Source: Escherichia coli
Lineage (GTDB): Bacteria > Pseudomonadota > Gammaproteobacteria > Enterobacterales > Enterobacteriaceae
NCBI RefSeq assembly: GCF_024223415.1
Contig: NZ_CP100500.1
Direction: 5' to 3' (one strand)
DNA: 64,000 bases
Part shown: piece after piece, positions 12,403-53,949 of the stretch
Position numbering within the stretch: the first letter of the stretch is position 1
Layout of the letters: every line of letters starts with the position of its first letter
Made by a program: the position numbers and the translations under genes
The notes under the pieces: model-generated
What the model was told of the DNA's origin: nothing
The model's input: only the letters and a program-made list of their open reading frames with translations
The model's database searches: none

Positions 12403-13125
12403 GTGGCGACACTCTTTATTGCAGATCTTCATCTCTGCGTGGAAGAACCGGCGATCACCGCCGGTTTTCTGCGTTTTTTAGCGGGGGAAGCTCGCAAGGC
12501 CGACGCGCTGTATATTCTTGGCGATCTGTTTGAAGCGTGGATTGGCGACGACGATCCCAACCCACTCCATCGCCAGATGGCGGCGGCGATCAAAGCGGTG
12601 TCCGATTCCGGCGTTCCCTGTTATTTCATTCATGGCAACCGTGATTTTCTGCTCGGCAAACGCTTTGCCCGTGAAAGCGGCATGACGTTATTGCCGGAAG
12701 AAAAGGTGCTCGAACTTTATGGTCGCCGGGTGTTGATTATGCATGGCGACACGCTGTGCACCGATGACGCGGGTTATCAGGCTTTTCGCGCCAAGGTCCA
12801 CAAACCCTGGCTGCAGACGCTATTCCTCGCCCTGCCGTTGTTTGTGCGCAAACGCATTGCCGCGCGAATGCGCGCGAACAGTAAAGAAGCCAACAGCAGT
12901 AAATCGCTGGCGATCATGGACGTTAACCAAAACGCGGTGGTCAGTGCGATGGAAAAACATCAGGTGCAATGGCTGATTCACGGGCATACCCATCGCCCGG
13001 CGGTACATGAACTTATCGCCAACCAGCAACCTGCTTTTCGCGTGGTACTCGGTGCCTGGCATACAGAAGGTTCGATGGTGAAAGTCACGGCGGATGACGT
13101 TGAGCTGATTCATTTTCCGTTTTAA
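12403..13125 (+). CDS. lpxH: UDP-2,3-diacylglucosamine hydrolase
   Basis: 240-aa [14 protein letters not shown]... with calcineurin-like metallophosphatase motifs (GDLFEAW, GNRD). Confidence 0.95.
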
Positions 13126-13242
13126 AAAACCCGCAACTTTGCTGATTTCACAGCCACGCAACCGTTTTCCTTGCTCTCTTTCCGTGCTATTCTCTGTGCC
13201 CTCTAAAGCCGAGAGTTGTGCACCACAGGAGTTTTAAGACGC

Positions 13243-13752
13243 ATGTCTTCCCGCAATAATCCGGCGCGTGTCGCCATCGTGATGGGGTCCAAAAGCGACT
13301 GGGCTACCATGCAGTTCGCCGCCGAAATCTTCGAAATCCTGAATGTCCCGCACCACGTTGAAGTGGTTTCTGCTCACCGCACCCCCGATAAACTGTTCAG
13401 CTTCGCCGAAAGCGCCGAAGAGAACGGTTATCAGGTGATTATTGCGGGCGCAGGCGGCGCAGCGCACCTGCCAGGCATGATTGCTGCCAAAACGCTGGTG
13501 CCAGTGCTGGGCGTGCCAGTACAGAGCGCCGCACTGAGCGGTGTCGATAGCCTCTACTCCATCGTACAAATGCCGCGCGGCATTCCGGTGGGTACGCTGG
13601 CGATTGGTAAAGCTGGCGCGGCAAACGCGGCGTTACTGGCAGCACAAATTCTTGCGACTCATGATAAAGAACTGCACCAGCGTCTGAATGACTGGCGCAA
13701 AGCCCAGACCGACGAAGTGCTGGAAAACCCGGACCCGCGAGGTGCGGCATGA
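13243..13752 (+). CDS. purE: N5-carboxyaminoimidazole ribonucleotide mutase
   Basis: 169-aa product from [20 protein letters not shown]... Confidence 0.95.
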
Positions 13753-14816
13753 AACAGGTTTGCGTCCTCGGTAACGGGCAGTTAGGCCGTATGCTGCGTC
13801 AGGCAGGCGAACCGTTAGGCATTGCTGTCTGGCCAGTCGGGCTGGACGCTGAACCGGCGGCGGTGCCTTTTCAACAAAGCGTGATTACCGCTGAGATCGA
13901 ACGCTGGCCGGAAACCGCATTAACCCGCGAGCTGGCGCGCCATCCGGCCTTTGTGAACCGCGATGTGTTCCCGATTATTGCTGACCGTCTGACTCAGAAG
14001 CAGCTTTTCGATAAGCTCCACCTGCCGACCGCACCGTGGCAGTTACTTGCCGATCGCAGCGAGTGGCCTGCGGTGTTTGATCGTTTAGGTGAGCTGGCGA
14101 TTGTTAAGCGTCGCACTGGTGGCTATGACGGTCGCGGTCAATGGCGTTTACGTGCCGATGAAACCGAACAGTTACCGGCTGAATGCTACGGCGAATGTAT
14201 AGTCGAGCAGGGCATAAACTTCTCTGGTGAAGTGTCGCTGGTTGGCGCGCGCGGCTTTGATGGCAGCACCGTGTTTTATCCGCTGACGCATAACCTGCAT
14301 CAGGACGGTATTTTGCGCACCAGCGTCGCTTTCCCGCAGGCCAATGCACAGCAGCAAGCGCAAGCCGAAGAGATGCTGTCGGCGATTATGCAGGAGCTGG
14401 GCTATGTGGGCGTGATGGCGATGGAGTGTTTTGTCACCCCGCAAGGTCTGCTGATCAACGAACTGGCTCCGCGTGTGCATAACAGCGGTCACTGGACACA
14501 AAACGGTGCCAGCATCAGCCAGTTTGAGCTGCATCTGCGGGCGATTACCGATCTGCCGTTACCGCAACCAGTGGTGAATAATCCGTCGGTGATGATCAAT
14601 CTGATTGGTAGCGATGTGAATTATGACTGGCTGAAACTGCCGCTGGTGAATCTGCACTGGTACGACAAAGAAGTCCGTCCGGGCCGTAAAGTGGGGCATC
14701 TGAATTTGACCGACAGCGACACATCGCGTCTGTCCGCGACGCTGGAAGCCTTAATCCCGCTGCTGCCGCCGGAGTATGCCAGCGGCGTGATGTGGGCACA
14801 GAGTAAGTTCAGTTAA
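13749..14816 (+). CDS. purK: N5-carboxyaminoimidazole ribonucleotide synthase
   Basis: 355-aa ATP-grasp ORF overlapping the purE stop (operon). Confidence 0.95.
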
Positions 14817-34679: not shown

Positions 34680-34721
34680 GTCATACCACTCGCCTGATTA
34701 TTTTTAGCTATGTTGGATTTT

Positions 34722-34748
34722 GCCACGGTTTATACCGTGGCTTTTTTT
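34722..34748 (+). terminator. Rho-independent terminator after allE
   Basis: Hairpin GCCACGG-TTTATA-CCGTGGC followed by TTTTTTT; a REP-like palindrome follows. Confidence 0.55.
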
Positions 34749-34906
34749 GTAACATTGCCTGATGCGCTTCGCTTATCAGGCCTACATGATCTCTGCAATA
34801 TATAGAATTTGCGCGATTTTCAGGAAGGATATAGTGCTCATGCAGCATCCGGCATGAGCACTGCGCTCTTATACGAAATAAATCGCATCCGCTTTAAAGG
34901 TAAGGG

Positions 34907-46698: not shown

Positions 46699-47808
<1,110 letters not shown>

Positions 47809-47887
47809 TGAGGGACGTATTTGTATTAGTCGCGACTTGATCTGACACATGGCCTTGAAAGGTTGAGAGTTACCGGTTTTGATATGA

Positions 47888-48295
47888 GTGTCGAATCCTT
47901 ATCCAAAACAAGAGGTAACTCTCATGCTTCATACTGCCAATCCCGTCATCAAACACAAAGCCGGTTTGCTCAATCTGGCTGAAGAACTCAGCAACGTATC
48001 AAAAGCCTGTAAAATCATGGGCGTTTCGCGTGATACGTTTTATCGTTACCGCGAACTGGTCGCTGAAGGCGGTGTGGATGCGCAGATTAATCGTAGTCGC
48101 CGCGCTCCTAACCTTAAGAACCGTACCGATGAGGCAACTGAACAGGCTGTTGTTGATTACGCCGTCGCTTTCCCGACACATGGTCAGCACCGGGCCAGCA
48201 ACGAGCTGCGTAAACAGGGGGTTTTTATCTCCGACAGTGGTGTCCGTTCTGTCTGGTTACTCCATAACCTTGAGAATCTCAAAAGACGATACTGA
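47888..48295 (+). pseudogene. IS481-family-like transposase N-terminal fragment (HTH only)
   Basis: 135-aa ORF with transposase-type HTH (GVSRDTFYRYRELVAEGGVDAQINRSRRAP...) but no DDE catalytic domain. Confidence 0.5.
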
Positions 48296-48305
48296 ACAAA
48301 TTTTA

Positions 48306-48443
48306 TCAGGTGACGTTCCGTAAAAAGTTGTATGGAGTTCTCGATGCAGTCGGCGCGACTATCAGTACCCCCGCTGAACCCTGGACTATCGGGCCGCCGT
48401 ACTGGGGCATGTCACCCTGGCGTGCCGCTGGTTTTCCGCTAAT
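48306..48443 (-). pseudogene. Orphan Rhs N-terminal (PAAR-region) fragment
   Basis: Minus-strand reading ISGKPAARQGDMPQYGGPIVQGSAG... parallels the rhs start MSGKPAARQGDMTQYGGPIVQGSAG at 53521; ATG replaced by ATT, followed by unrelated sequence. Confidence 0.6.
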
Positions 48444-49039
48444 GGTTTATTTCCTCTTTCTTTCCCGGCAAGAATTTATTTTAATCCGGAAGGATTATTT
48501 ATTTTCAGATAGGGACTCACATTAAACACGTAACATTTTAATTAATGCATGGCTGAATATGTATTACACAATGTCAGATATCGTAAAAGACCAGTGCAAT
48601 TCTATGTAAACTCTCTGACTGTTTATTTTATTTGTTGTTTCAGGGTCGGAACTCACCCTCAATAAACAACTGAATACGAGTAGATATTCATCGTCTGAGC
48701 TATATGGCTTTACACAATAGCCGACATGTCTTTTCTCAGTCAGAAATTTTACTTTTCCTCACTACGAAGTTGACGACTTCGATATGGGATAGACTCTTAA
48801 TTCAAGCAATTACTCTGCACAAGCATCAGGCAATCCAGCTCCAATATTTGTTATAAAATAATGCGTAACATTAATTTCACCAACAAAAAAAAGGTTTACG
48901 CTATCCCCTTGCCCTGGTATTTTACCATATTTACACCACACTTTTTTTGTATCTGGATCATTCTCTGATACGATTTTCGCCACTTGTTCCCTGGCCCTCA
49001 CTGTCAATGTTTTCTTAAACCTACCCCCATCATCATTTG

Positions 49040-49300
49040 TTAGGGAAAAATAAGAAAAAAATAATCATCTTCTACATTTGTGTATATTGATATATCCACC
49101 GCTACGTGCGGAAAAAAATCTGGGAGCCATGTAAAAACTCCATCATTTTCTGGTATTGCCATATAGTTTATGTAATGTTTACTTACAAGAGATTCATCTT
49201 TGTATAAATAAAGATAAGTAATTACGCATAAAACAACAATGATTATAATAGCAAAAATAAATATTATCATCTTTGATAGATTACTTGAGATAGCCAGCAT
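49040..49300 (-). CDS. Small membrane protein; candidate Rhs immunity protein
   Basis: 86-aa ORF with one strong TM helix, AT-rich, directly downstream of and overlapping the rhs 3' end. Confidence 0.4.
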
Positions 49301-52300
49301 CTTGTAAAGCCTTTATCGTTTTTTTATGCTCTGGATTAATATAATCACTACATCTATCTGAGCAATCTGTTGTTGATGGACATGTCAACCCATGGTCATT
49401 TACAGCCAAGTCTTTTTTATTATCTTCAATCATTTCAGAATGGGATAGCTTTACTTTTCTGCCGTACATACCGAACAGATTTAACCCGTAATCTCTAATC
49501 TCTTTTTCATAACCCAGCCCTTTCGCCGATCGGCTAACACCAGCGTCATTTAATTTAGACACTCGACAAAATGCCATACAATGGAAAAATTGATCAGTCC
49601 CACCTAAATTTAATCTCTTCATATCTTCATAAGTATCAGATAATATATCCCATGCTCTTTGATGGTTTAGTTGATCTTTTCTTCTTATTAGCGCTACATC
49701 TGCGGGACTTAACCCTAATGGATCAATACCATTCACCGGATTCAGCGGATACGCATACAGACTCCATCCCCCCTCCAGCCCTATCGGGTCCTGAGTGATA
49801 TACCGCCCCTGCAACGGATCGTAGTACCGGTTCCGGTTGTAGTACAGCCCCGACTCCTTATCATACTGCTGCCCCGGCAGCCGGTACGGCTGGTGCAGGT
49901 GATGCGGGTTCTCCTCATTAAGCTGGTTGCCCCATTCATCATATTCCGCGCTCCACGCCGTATTGCCGTCTTCACTGATAAGCGCCAGCGGCAGGCCCCG
50001 GTAGTCACAGTGATAAAGATGTATTTTTCGCTCAGGCAAATAAACCGGCTCTATCTGTGCCGCCAGCCGCTCCACCGTCAGCCCGCACTGCGCAAGCCAC
50101 TGGCGGCTTTCACTGCTCACGCAGTTTGCCCGGATTTCCCCCTCCAGCCTGTCCAGCAGCCCCACCAGTTCAGCCGGGAACACCACACCGTGGCCGTCTT
50201 CGCTCCCTTCCTGCTGCAGCTTCTCCGCCAGGCTGCGGCACTGCGCTTTCTCCCGTTCACCGTTGTCTGTTTCGATGCGGATGAGCGGCGCGAAGCTCCC
50301 CGGCTGGTATACCGTCTGGATACGCGTGGTGTCGGTCTGTACCGTCGTCAGCCGGTCGCCGTCCCATCCGTACCACGTCACCTCCGGTTTACGCGACAGC
50401 GACATCCATCCCGTCAGGTCACGCTCCCGCCGCCATACCCGTTTCGCCATTCGCCGTCCCAGCGGGTCACAGAGGTAGCGGCTCTCGACCAGTGGCTCGC
50501 CATGCTGTATCCGCGTGTGGAACACCAGGCGGTGCTGGCTGTCGTAGTGATAGTGGTGGGTCCGCTCGTCGTCCGTCCGTATCACACCCGCCGGGATGCG
50601 GTCCGTCTTCTCCGTCAGCCTGCCGTATTCATCGTGGCGGTAGACATAGTGCGCATCCTCCGCGATGCGGTTATCCGGCCACACTGTGAGTGTACTGTCC
50701 GGGTGCAGCTCCGGGTCCGGCAGCCGGTTTCCCGCCGGGTCGGTCGCATACGGGATGCGGATGTCCAGGTCCGGTGCGAGGGTGCGCACGCTCTCCAGCC
50801 TGCCCGTGGCGCTGTAGCCGTATTCCCGCGTCTGCCGGGGGGCGCTGATGCGCACCAGGTCGCCGTTGTCACTCCACCCGTAGTCACGGTCATATACCAG
50901 GCTGTTCAGGTGCTGGCTCTGTAACCGGCCTGCGGGGGTGTATGTGTTGGTCAGTTCATATGCGGCATTACTGCCTGCCATGCTGCCGAAGCTGCGCACC
51001 GTCTCCCGGTGCAGGCGGTCGCGCGTGAACTCCAGCAGCGGCGTCCCGCCCAGCTTCATTCCCGCCAGGTAACCGCTGCCATACGTCAGCCACTCCACCG
51101 GCGGCAGGCTGTCCGGCGTGACGCGGTTTGCCAGCCCCTGTTCGTTGTATGCGTGTTTCGTCTCATGCTGCCACAGCAGTTCCCCCGTCTCCGGGTTCTC
51201 CACCGTCTGGCGTTCGCCGGTCAGGCGGCCCTTATCGTCGTAGCCGTAGTGGGCAGCGACACGGTGGCCTTCACTGAGATGGCTGATGTCTGTCAGCCAG
51301 CCGTGGCCGTCATACTGCCACTGCTCTGCCGGTTCACCGTTTACCGTGCGGTGAGTGATACAGTCCGATTCATCGTAGTACCAGAGGGTGACAAGCCCCT
51401 CATCTTCACTCTGCGTGAGTTTTCCTGTCAGGTCATAATGATAACGCAGCGTCCGCCCGTCAAAGCCGCCCTGCTGTACCAGGCGGTCCAGCGCATCGTA
51501 ACTGAAATCACTGTGGCTGCCGTTCTCGTTAGTCAGACTGATGACACGTCCGGCAACATCGTACTCCATACTGCGCGTCAGCCCGCCCTGCGTGGTGCTG
51601 ACCGCCTTTCCCCACGCATCGTACTGTGTCTCGCTCCGGTTGCCGTCCGGGGTGATAACGGCAGTCAGGTCGCCTGCGGCGTTGTACTCATACCGCGTTT
51701 CATGGCCCTGTGCGTCTTTCACCGAGATTAACCGGCCACGGTTGTCATAGCGGCGGTAAAGGCTGATGCCTTCCTCGCGGTGGACCGCCGTCATCTGGCC
51801 GAAGCGGTCGTATTCATAGCGGGTCTGGTAGCCCGAGCAGTCGGTGAACGCCAGCAACTGACCGTAGCGGCTCCAGGTCATCTGCCGGGTGCTGCCCGTC
51901 GCATCTGTTGTCGTGGCCGGTAATTCACTGTGCGGATTATCATAAGCATGCCGGATGACGTCCCCGCTGCGCGATGTCTCCGATACCAGCCTGCCCGGTT
52001 CATCATATGCCCGGCGGCTCTCCAGCCCGTCCGGGGACACCACCGCCGTCAGCTGGTTCCCGTCGTTATAGTAAAATTTCGTCTCCCGCCCGTCCGGTGT
52101 GGTGATGTCCGTGATATCGCCGGACACCACATTCAGACCGTACTCTGTCCGCCGTCCCGCCGCGTCCGTCTGCGCCGTGAGCCTTCCTGCCGCGTCATAC
52201 CCGCTGTGCGTGACGCTGCCGTCCGCCAGTTCTTTTTTCACCACCCGCTTCAGCCCGGCCCCGCCTTCTGTATGCAGCACCTCACGCCGGTTCAGGCTAT

Positions 52301-53521
52301 CCGTGACGGTGATGCGGTCCTGCTCATACTGGTAGCGGTAACTCAGGCCTGCCGGGTTCAGCTGCTCCACCACCCGCCCGGTATCGTCGTAGCGGTAGCG
52401 CATCTCCGGCCTTCCCGCATAACGGTGCCCCACCATCCGGCCCGGGTGCTGCGCGTCATACGTGAAAGCGCGCACCTGCGTATTGCTGCGGTCATATACC
52501 GCCAGCAGTTCACCGGCTTCCGTATACGTGTACCGCACCAGTGGCGCACCGGGCAGGCTCTCCGGGTATGCCGGATCGTGCATCAGCCACACCGCCGAAA
52601 GGCGGATGCCCCTGTCGGGGCCGTATTCGGTACCGGGCAGTGTGTCGGGGAACGCTGAGGCTGAGAGAGGGCGGGAACGGTCAGAAGAAGATAGCGAAGA
52701 GGTGCGGGCCTCTTCCGCACGCTGCGCCTGCGTGGTCAGCACCAGACGGAACTCCCGCCCGGCACCGTCCGTCACGCCGGTGATTCCCCCGGCCAGGTCA
52801 CCGGCGGCCTCACGCCGGTGATTCCCCCGGCCAGGTCACCGGCGGCCTCACGCCGGTACGTCAGCGTCCGCCCGAAGCGGTCCGCCATCCCGGTAAGCAC
52901 CCGGTACGGCGGCAGCGGCGCTGGCAGTACGTCCTCAGCACCCGGCACCCGCTCAGACCACCCCAGTATCCACCACGGCCCCTGTGCGCTGTTGGTCGCC
53001 AGGTAAAGATGCGGGCTTAACCGGATATCCGGCGGCAGCGACGCCCACAGCCGTGCCAGCGTATGGCCGTCCGGCTGTGCTGCCTTACCACCGCGCACCA
53101 GCCACAGGGACTCGCTGCGGCTGTACACCGCCTCACCCGGCAGCAGCGGCTCAAAGTGAATGCTCCGTCCGCCGTTGTCGTTGAGTACCAGTGCATCATC
53201 GCGTAGCTGTAAGCGGATATCAGAAGGCGCTTTCCAGCCGGGGCCAAAAATCCCCACCGGTGCAGGCGTCTTCGTCCGGTAGCTGCTGTAGGTGCGGGAG
53301 AGAATGAACGGCAGCGGGCCGGGCAGCGCAAGGTCCGTCTCGCCGGGCAGCACCTTCGCCCCCAGCAGCGGATTTACCGGGTTGCCCGAAGTCATCCCGC
53401 CCGGACACACCGAGCACGCCACGCCAGTTGGCGCGCCAATTCTTACACCTGCCGAACCCTGGACAATGGGACCGCCATACTGAGTCATATCTCCCTGACG
53501 CGCCGCTGGTTTTCCGCTCAT
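49281..53521 (-). pseudogene. Rhs family polymorphic toxin gene frameshifted by a 38-bp tandem duplication
   Basis: ORFs 52772..53521 (PAAR-like N-terminus) and 49281..52775 (YD-repeat core, DPIGL, AT-rich C-terminal tip) are split by a perfect tandem duplication at 52772-52847. Confidence 0.85.
52772..52847. repeat. Perfect 38-bp tandem duplication inside rhs
   Basis: TCACGCCGGTGATTCCCCCGGCCAGGTCACCGGCGGCC occurs twice in tandem (52772-52809, 52810-52847), bounded by the 10-bp microhomology TCACGCCGGT. Confidence 0.85.
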
Positions 53522-53949
53522 ATAAAGTGCCCTTTTAGTTATTGTTCATATCCCTGTGTTAGTAACAAAAAAATAAAATGACACACAAGACCAGCTAATG
53601 TATTTATATATTTTTCACATAAACTTATTTGTTCTCAATCAACAACAACTGTTATTACAGGTCACTTTCAATATTTTATTAAACTAAAATTTTTAGCACA
53701 GATGAATTCATCATCAACAAATTCACTATATGGATAATATCCATTCAACGCATATGATTTATGATTTTATTAGTCTGAGTTATTTTTGTAGGGCTATATT
53801 TAAAATTATTAAACTCCACCGATTCAGATTAATATCAGCAATAGAAAGATAGGAAATCACCAATTCAATAACATCATCAATGAAACATATTGTAGAATTA
53901 ATTTAAACAAGGCGTTCCATTCAACCAGAACGCCCCTTATTTACTCTCA

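Follow-up and report, generated by a model that had tools for sequence, protein, structure and literature searches.

Two adjoining remnants, of an IS481-family transposase gene and of the start of an rhs gene, at the edge of the RhsD island of Escherichia coli

Results

The mnmH-side edge of the RhsD island

We analyzed a 64-kb stretch of an E. coli chromosome (the window). Its gene order is glxR-hyi-gcl-allR-allA on the minus strand, allS and mnmH on the plus strand, the remnants described here, rhs on the minus strand, and ybbP. A sequence-only reading had reported two remnants next to rhs at 47888-48443, and both are present at essentially those positions: an open reading frame at 47888..48295 and a match to the 5' end of rhs that runs from 48443 to 48347. 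The remnant of the insertion sequence (IS) is larger than the reported interval, as its left inverted repeat begins at 47822 and a second piece lies at 48289-48348. The features of this region are:

47822..47847, plus strand: left terminal inverted repeat (IRL), TGTATTAGTCGCGACTTGATCTGACA; intact, and aligns with the left end of the full-length copies in KP63 and plasmid pCEA224S
47859..47929, plus strand: leader hairpin, whose arm AAGGTTGAGAGTTACC pairs with GGTAACTCTCATGCTT; found as an inverted repeat and by RNA folding
47924..48295, plus strand: ylbG, a truncated transposase frame of 123 codons plus TGA that contains the helix-turn-helix (HTH) part only; from the open reading frame, RefSeq, and profiles
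48280..48294, plus strand: junction of a 472-bp internal deletion, with the break between 48288 and 48289; from two BLAST pieces, one ending at IS position 504 and the other starting at 968, with a 472-nt offset
48289..48348, plus strand: post-catalytic (rve_3) leftover of 60 nt, which reads ..LNKFYQVTFRKKLYGVLDA.. in another frame
48347..48443, minus strand: orphan rhs 5' fragment, codons 1-32 (ISGKPAARQGDMPQYGGPIVQGSAGVLIVAPT), with 79% identity to the start of the resident rhs; a pseudo-CDS in RefSeq
48450..48459, minus strand: Shine-Dalgarno-like AAAGAGGAAA, 6 nt upstream of the ATT codon of the rhs fragment; read from the sequence and assigned to the truncated rhs gene

In UTI89, which has the empty site, homology to the window is interrupted after 47815 and starts again at 53940. 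Because mnmH and ybbP are just 58 bp apart in UTI89, everything between these positions is an RhsD island of ~6.1 kb (~47816-53939 in the window) that is absent from strains such as UTI89. Judging from this alignment, ylbG and the rhs 5' fragment are the edge of the island on the mnmH side. ATCC 8739 has neither the empty site nor an Rhs island between mnmH and ybbP: instead, it has an unrelated insert of ~0.7 kb that is annotated with a dinQ-like type I toxin gene (7411-8114 of its compared stretch). Insertions thus appear to recur at this spot.

The remnant adjoins mnmH, with at least 80% coverage, in 2,902 of 5,406 E. coli genomes. In most of the remaining genomes, homology ends right after mnmH, and about 2,500 E. 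coli genomes lack the remnant altogether. The junctions are identical in every island-bearing genome that we examined. The remnant region (47809-48560) is 100% identical in the K-12 derivatives DH1, DH5alpha, and J53 and in many other strains, while across the wider rhs region the nearest strains are SCU-316 and KV7 (99.9%).

Near-identical copies of the remnants (99.8-100%) are also found in four records that are labelled as plasmids (NZ_CP069916.1, a 19-kb record from Klebsiella oxytoca; NZ_CP137697.1; NZ_OL790696.1; and CP099174.1), and the contig CASFSC010000074.1 of an "Alistipes" metagenome-assembled genome contains the remnant locus with 99.2% identity across the contig. Mislabelling of chromosomes, misassembly, or contamination during binning most likely accounts for these records.

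An Rfam search of 47800-49300 gave no match, and scans of 47700-49400 for promoters and terminators found no more of them than in shuffled sequences. The Rfam matches elsewhere in the window are unrelated and are all on the minus strand (STnc480 at 34686-34752, ES036/CssrF at 34778-34820, and a tRNA at 1540-1613). Upstream of the rhs fragment is an AT-rich spacer. KN12-1 has an 85% identical copy of part of this spacer (48492-48674) at an RhsE-type locus (5001-5185 of its compared stretch), where it is flanked by a hypothetical gene and by ydcC, an ISAs1/H-repeat gene, with vgrG adjacent. This implies that RhsD and RhsE elements have downstream components in common.

An IS481-family element without its catalytic core and right end

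The left inverted repeat starts 13 nt past the stop codon of mnmH (47806-47808). The right ends of the full-length copies in KP63 and pCEA224S bear the inverted counterpart of this repeat, which is TGTATTAGCTCAGACCTGATCTGACAG when reverse-complemented. We searched both strands of the 64-kb window for a second inverted repeat, with up to 3 mismatches allowed, and the left repeat is the only copy. There is thus no second IS end in the window that would make the island a composite transposon, and the boundary of the island on the ybbP side has no repeat either. Elsewhere, MRSN346647 has an exact 36-nt copy of 47822-47857 (6001-6036 of its compared stretch). This unannotated copy, located between intS and yfdG of a prophage, may be a solo IS end; it is in an unrelated region and is uninformative about the rhs locus.

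Just past the left repeat, the leader can form a hairpin: the predicted fold of 47850-47935 has a free energy of -25.7 kcal/mol (z = -3.3 relative to shuffled sequences). The hairpin is conserved in the full-length IS copies and is predicted to bury the ribosome binding site and the ATG of the transposase frame. As in IS elements generally, such a hairpin would limit translation.

From the left repeat up to the internal break (47822-48288), the nucleotide identity of the remnant is 95.5% with the copy in pCEA224S and 94.2% with that in KP63. The 472 bp that are missing after the break include the DDE/rve catalytic core, and their loss shifts the frame and creates the TGA at 48293. The same 472-bp difference is seen in comparisons to plasmid copies, where a 527-bp query spans 999 bp. 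In the undeleted element, this breakpoint is flanked by a pair of imperfect direct repeats, CAAAAAACGTCTGAA and CATAAAACAATCCTGAA. In one ENA contig, 8 nt at the deletion junction (AGACGATA) are apparently absent, which puts the two IS pieces in frame and gives a 197-aa protein whose reading frame continues through the antisense of the rhs fragment. Either a sequencing error or a rare allele could explain this variant.

The 60-nt leftover beyond the break aligns to positions ~977-1036 of the IS in pCEA224S (..ILNEFYQVTFRKKLYGDLDT..) with ~83% identity and corresponds to the post-catalytic segment ..LNEFYQVTFRKKLYG.. of the IS. The 3' end of the IS, namely its last ~185 bp and the right inverted repeat, is gone. 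With no catalytic domain and only one end, the remnant can neither encode an active transposase nor be mobilised. The leftover is more diverged from all of the available IS copies than the N-terminal piece is (~83% versus 95.5% identity; Fisher's exact test on the BLAST pieces, p ~9e-5). Possible reasons are an origin in a different IS481 copy or a true junction between IS and rhs that is a few bases earlier.

ylbG encodes an HTH domain and belongs to decaying IS copies

The reading frame as called mechanically (47888..48295, plus strand) starts with GTG and encodes 135 amino acids. The ATG at 47924, which lies behind AGAGGT and gives 123 amino acids, is the likelier start. RefSeq annotates 47924..48289 as [quoted passage not shown] Both pieces (ylbG and a partial hypothetical protein) likewise carry pseudogene labels in the RefSeq records of DH1, KV7, and other strains.

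The sequence-only reading described this frame as an IS481-type transposase HTH fragment without a catalytic domain, and profile searches bear this out. The 47888..48295 frame matches HTH_29 (E = 2.3e-20) as well as HTH_28, HTH_23, and HTH_32 from Pfam, which amounts to a complete winged HTH, and the Pfam search found no rve domain. The assignment to the IS481 family rests on the NCBIfam transposase profile NF033577: ylbG covers positions 2-112 of the 284 positions and scores 89.9 bits, which is below the cut-off of 224 bits. Translation of the full-length relative from pCEA224S gives 287.9 bits against the same profile and contains the rve and rve_3 domains.

These full-length relatives have been annotated as "IS481 family transposase." They are elements of ~1.2 kb (1,222 bp) with two inverted repeats and a transposase frame of 346 codons, and they are located in E. 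coli chromosomes (KP63 and SCU-176) and in plasmids (pCEA224S, where the frame has one internal stop). Related IS481 copies are also found on plasmids of E. coli, E. albertii, and Klebsiella. Had ylbG been a full-length, conserved regulator in other strains, its description as a transposase fragment would have been wrong; its relatives turned out to be these IS elements. We also considered a short conserved regulator and rejected it, as the 120 best protein matches are fragments of 115-216 amino acids from decaying IS copies and do not form a distinct regulator family.

An rhs 5' end with its own ribosome binding site

On the minus strand, 48443->48347 aligns to the 5' end of the resident rhs (53521->53425) without gaps, with 77 of 97 positions identical (79%; local E = 9e-22). 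The translation of the fragment is ISGKPAARQGDMPQYGGPIVQGSAGVLIVAPT, as compared to MSGKPAARQGDMTQYGGPIVQGSAGVRIGAPT for the resident rhs. The matches of ylbG and of the rhs fragment are not due to chance. The sequence-only reading was correct that this is a diverged copy of the rhs start with ATT in place of ATG. Its estimate of ~35 codons was slightly too long, as the fragment has 32 codons plus 1 nt. The ATT (48443-48441) aligns to the ATG of the resident gene, is invariant in 7 of 7 strains compared, and is not a usable start. RefSeq annotates a pseudogene fragment at 48348..48443 on the minus strand.

With just 32 codons remaining, the fragment has a weak match to PAAR_motif (23 bits, with a cut-off of 27). 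Homology to rhs stops at 48347, where the IS remnant begins, and there is no YD-repeat core, core-end motif, or C-terminal toxin tip. The fragment and the end of the IS leftover share 2 nt (CA): the two remnants are directly joined, and the IS pieces and the rhs fragment leave no unassigned DNA between them.

The region upstream of the fragment is unrelated to that of the resident rhs, and in the best matches to other rhs genes, the similarity reaches no more than about 16-20 nt upstream of the start codon. With its own ribosome binding site and an upstream region unlike the resident gene's, the fragment is the beginning of another rhs gene. A distant BLAST search of 48347-48810 against 5,426 E. 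coli genomes returned copies of the same locus (at least 95% identity) and otherwise just unrelated rhs starts at 75-87%, with the closest E. coli rhs relatives at 82-87%; there was no intact ortholog. An exact-pattern scan from the ribosome binding site to the start codon, with ATG, ATA, or ATT allowed, across 100,044 species-representative genomes gave one contig, which is the same E. coli locus binned in the "Alistipes" genome.

We take this fragment to be ylbI of K-12, which is presumably the entry that EcoGene and EcoCyc curate as an Rhs-family fragment. The order in K-12 is ybbD and then ylbI, and genomic SELEX identified an in-vitro RpoD promoter upstream of ylbI (PMC3946193). This fits with a leftover rhs promoter and does not demonstrate a function.

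The resident rhs and its tip

The resident rhs of the window contains a perfect 38-bp tandem duplication (two copies of TCACGCCGGTGATTCCCCCGGCCAGGTCACCGGCGGCC at 52772-52847, minus strand) that shifts the frame and splits the gene into reading frames of 249 amino acids (52772-53521) and 1164 amino acids (49281-52775). KV7, which is the closest strain, and K-12 DH1 have a single copy of the 38 bp and an intact rhs. After the rhs tip comes a gene of the YbbD family (48810-49300, minus strand; NCBIfam PRK14710), presumably the immunity gene. It is split into reading frames of 86 and 65 amino acids by a 1-nt deletion near 49062, as in K-12, while KV7 and YL3 encode an intact protein of 163 amino acids.

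We compared 49281-49967 of the window to DH1 (8473-13871 of its compared stretch). In the window, the rhs core is fused directly to the tip that K-12 has as its displaced orphan, ylbH, and K-12 carries 1,160 bp more than the window, comprising its own RhsD tip and ybbC. The stretch shared for the tip exchange is at about 49738-49958 of the window. This difference in the tip between the window and K-12 is a live polymorphism of C-terminal tip displacement.

Discussion

Do the remnants have a function?

We think it very likely that these are two adjoining pseudogene remnants at the edge of the RhsD island, that they decayed by deletions, and that they have no function today. One point against this is that the window and most of the sampled strains retain an uninterrupted 123-codon frame of ylbG with a good Shine-Dalgarno sequence, so that a small HTH protein could be expressed. 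We compared 46714-48810 of the window to DH1 and five other strains. Across the seven strains, ylbG has 4 nonsynonymous changes and 1 synonymous change, and 2 of the 7 have a 1-nt deletion that RefSeq flags as a frameshift; the resulting form of 132 amino acids is on at least 1,000 contigs. Between ylbG and a full IS copy, a manual count from the alignment and translations gave 11 nonsynonymous and 3 synonymous differences. The edge of the island (47816-48810) differs between strains by 0.2-1.1% per site, as compared to 3.0-7.4% at third codon positions of mnmH, which suggests that the RhsD island arrived recently or spread horizontally in E. coli. Because the low divergence is shared with the flanking non-coding DNA, the conservation of ylbG reflects a young island rather than constraint. 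There is no sign of selection on ylbG, and the low divergence within the species (0.2-1.1% per site) gives a test for selection little power.

A domesticated YlbG might be a repressor that acts at IS481-type inverted repeats or a regulator of the neighboring rhs region, and truncated transposases of other IS families do inhibit transposition. The intact frame with its ribosome binding site and complete winged HTH is what such a protein would look like, the same reading frame is present in thousands of genomes, and the IS481 copies on E. coli, E. albertii, and Klebsiella plasmids would offer a possible target. Some submitters have labelled the protein a "DNA-binding transcriptional regulator" (PMC5422975). 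RefSeq, however, treats ylbG as a pseudogene, and the common frameshifted alleles, the mostly nonsynonymous changes, the predicted leader hairpin that occludes the ribosome binding site and the ATG, and the ~2,500 E. coli genomes that do without the gene all speak against domestication. So does the equally high conservation of the flanking non-coding DNA. On the laboratory side, the intergenic region between ybbD and ylbG, in which the rhs fragment lies, routinely serves as an integration site in K-12, with no reported phenotype. We conclude that domestication is very unlikely, and the specific proposal that YlbG is a retained and translated IS481-derived HTH protein, damping the transposition of its plasmid-borne relatives or acting on rhs, strikes us as even harder to credit. 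If true, it would amount to a minor example of a domesticated transposase concealed by its annotation as a pseudogene.

Where did the rhs fragment come from?

The sequence-only reading took the remnants as marks of past recombination or tip displacement at the rhs locus. They are indeed scars of rearrangement at this locus, but we doubt strongly that tip displacement at the resident rhs produced the fragment; of the explanations that we considered, this seems to us about the least credible. Tip displacement does occur here, as shown by the extra tip and ybbC in K-12 and by the core-attached tip in the window that corresponds to the K-12 orphan ylbH, and the fragment is downstream of rhs in the same orientation. 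Yet C-terminal displacement leaves fragments of the 3' end of the core with toxin tips downstream of rhs and not 5' starts (Jackson et al. 2009, PMC2935791), and this fragment consists of codons 1-32. It also has its own ribosome binding site and a different upstream region, is just 79% identical to the resident gene, and ends at the interior of an IS.

Instead, we propose that a second rhs gene once followed the resident pair of rhs and immunity gene and read towards the IS481 copy. The head of the fragment points towards the IS, and it is the interior of the IS, not its terminus, that meets codon 33 of rhs (with 0-2 nt of overlap). A simple insertion of the IS would have joined rhs to an IS terminus, so an illegitimate deletion is the simplest history. 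A single such deletion, not mediated by the transposase, would have removed the body of the second rhs gene together with the right end of the IS. The change of ATG to ATT and the internal deletion in the IS would be further decay; the IS lost the 472 bp that include the DDE core by deletion between the two short imperfect direct repeats. As the same junctions are in every island-bearing genome that we examined, all of these events would have preceded the spread of the island in E. coli. Both this sequence of events and the former presence of a complete second rhs gene are inferred, and none of the genomes that we searched contains an intermediate state of the second rhs and IS locus. The excess divergence of the 60-nt leftover is not accounted for by a single simple deletion in one element and counts against this history.

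The remnants might also have been fused already in a donor and been carried in passively with the end of the RhsD island, rather than decaying within E. coli. This concerns the place of the events and not the identity of the remnants, so it is compatible with our main explanation, and we consider it a reasonable possibility with somewhat less than an even chance of being correct. The uniform junctions and the lack of an intermediate would be expected from a donor origin. Relative to third codon positions of mnmH, the divergence of the island is lower by a factor of 5-15, which fits with a recent arrival or horizontal spread, and the closest rhs relatives of the fragment in E. coli are just 82-87% identical to it. 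On the other hand, the scan of species representatives led back to the same E. coli locus and gave no donor, and elements of this IS family are common within Escherichia, which makes formation in situ just as plausible.

Comparison with known systems

The remnants were already known as annotated pseudogenes and are probably inert. What we add is that the left end of the IS is the boundary of the island, that the element lost its catalytic core in a 472-bp deletion and retains a 60-nt post-catalytic survivor, and that the interior of the IS is joined to rhs at codon 33. We also correct the interpretation of the rhs piece, which would be the head of a lost second rhs gene and not a displaced tip. 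This adds a small detail to the picture of how Rhs islands form and decay.

In K-12, the RhsD element ends with rhsD-ybbC-ylbH-ybbD-ylbI-ylbG-mnmH, where ylbG is b0502. The remnants in the window are no different from those in K-12 (DH1, DH5alpha, and J53), and RefSeq places ylbG and the partial pseudogene identically. The differences are elsewhere at the locus: the window's strain, which resembles SCU-316 and KV7, lacks the RhsD tip and ybbC of K-12 and has its private 38-bp duplication in rhs.

As compared to full IS481 copies, for whose close relatives submitters have used the label ISSod13, the left repeat, the leader hairpin, and the first 122 codons of the remnant are 94-96% identical, but with the catalytic core (in the 472-bp deletion), the final ~185 bp, and the right repeat all missing, the remnant is no longer an IS. 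The full-length copies from E. coli that we inspected are themselves pseudogenes, with an internal stop or a frameshift.

Like the displaced orphans at rhs loci, the rhs fragment is a non-functional piece of rhs that lies downstream of a full rhs in the same orientation. Those orphans, such as ylbH in K-12, are 3' ends with the end of the core, a toxin tip, and an immunity gene, and recombination can reactivate them (PMC2935791). In contrast, the fragment that we describe is a 32-codon 5' end that has neither a tip nor an immunity gene and offers no homology to the core through which it could recombine.
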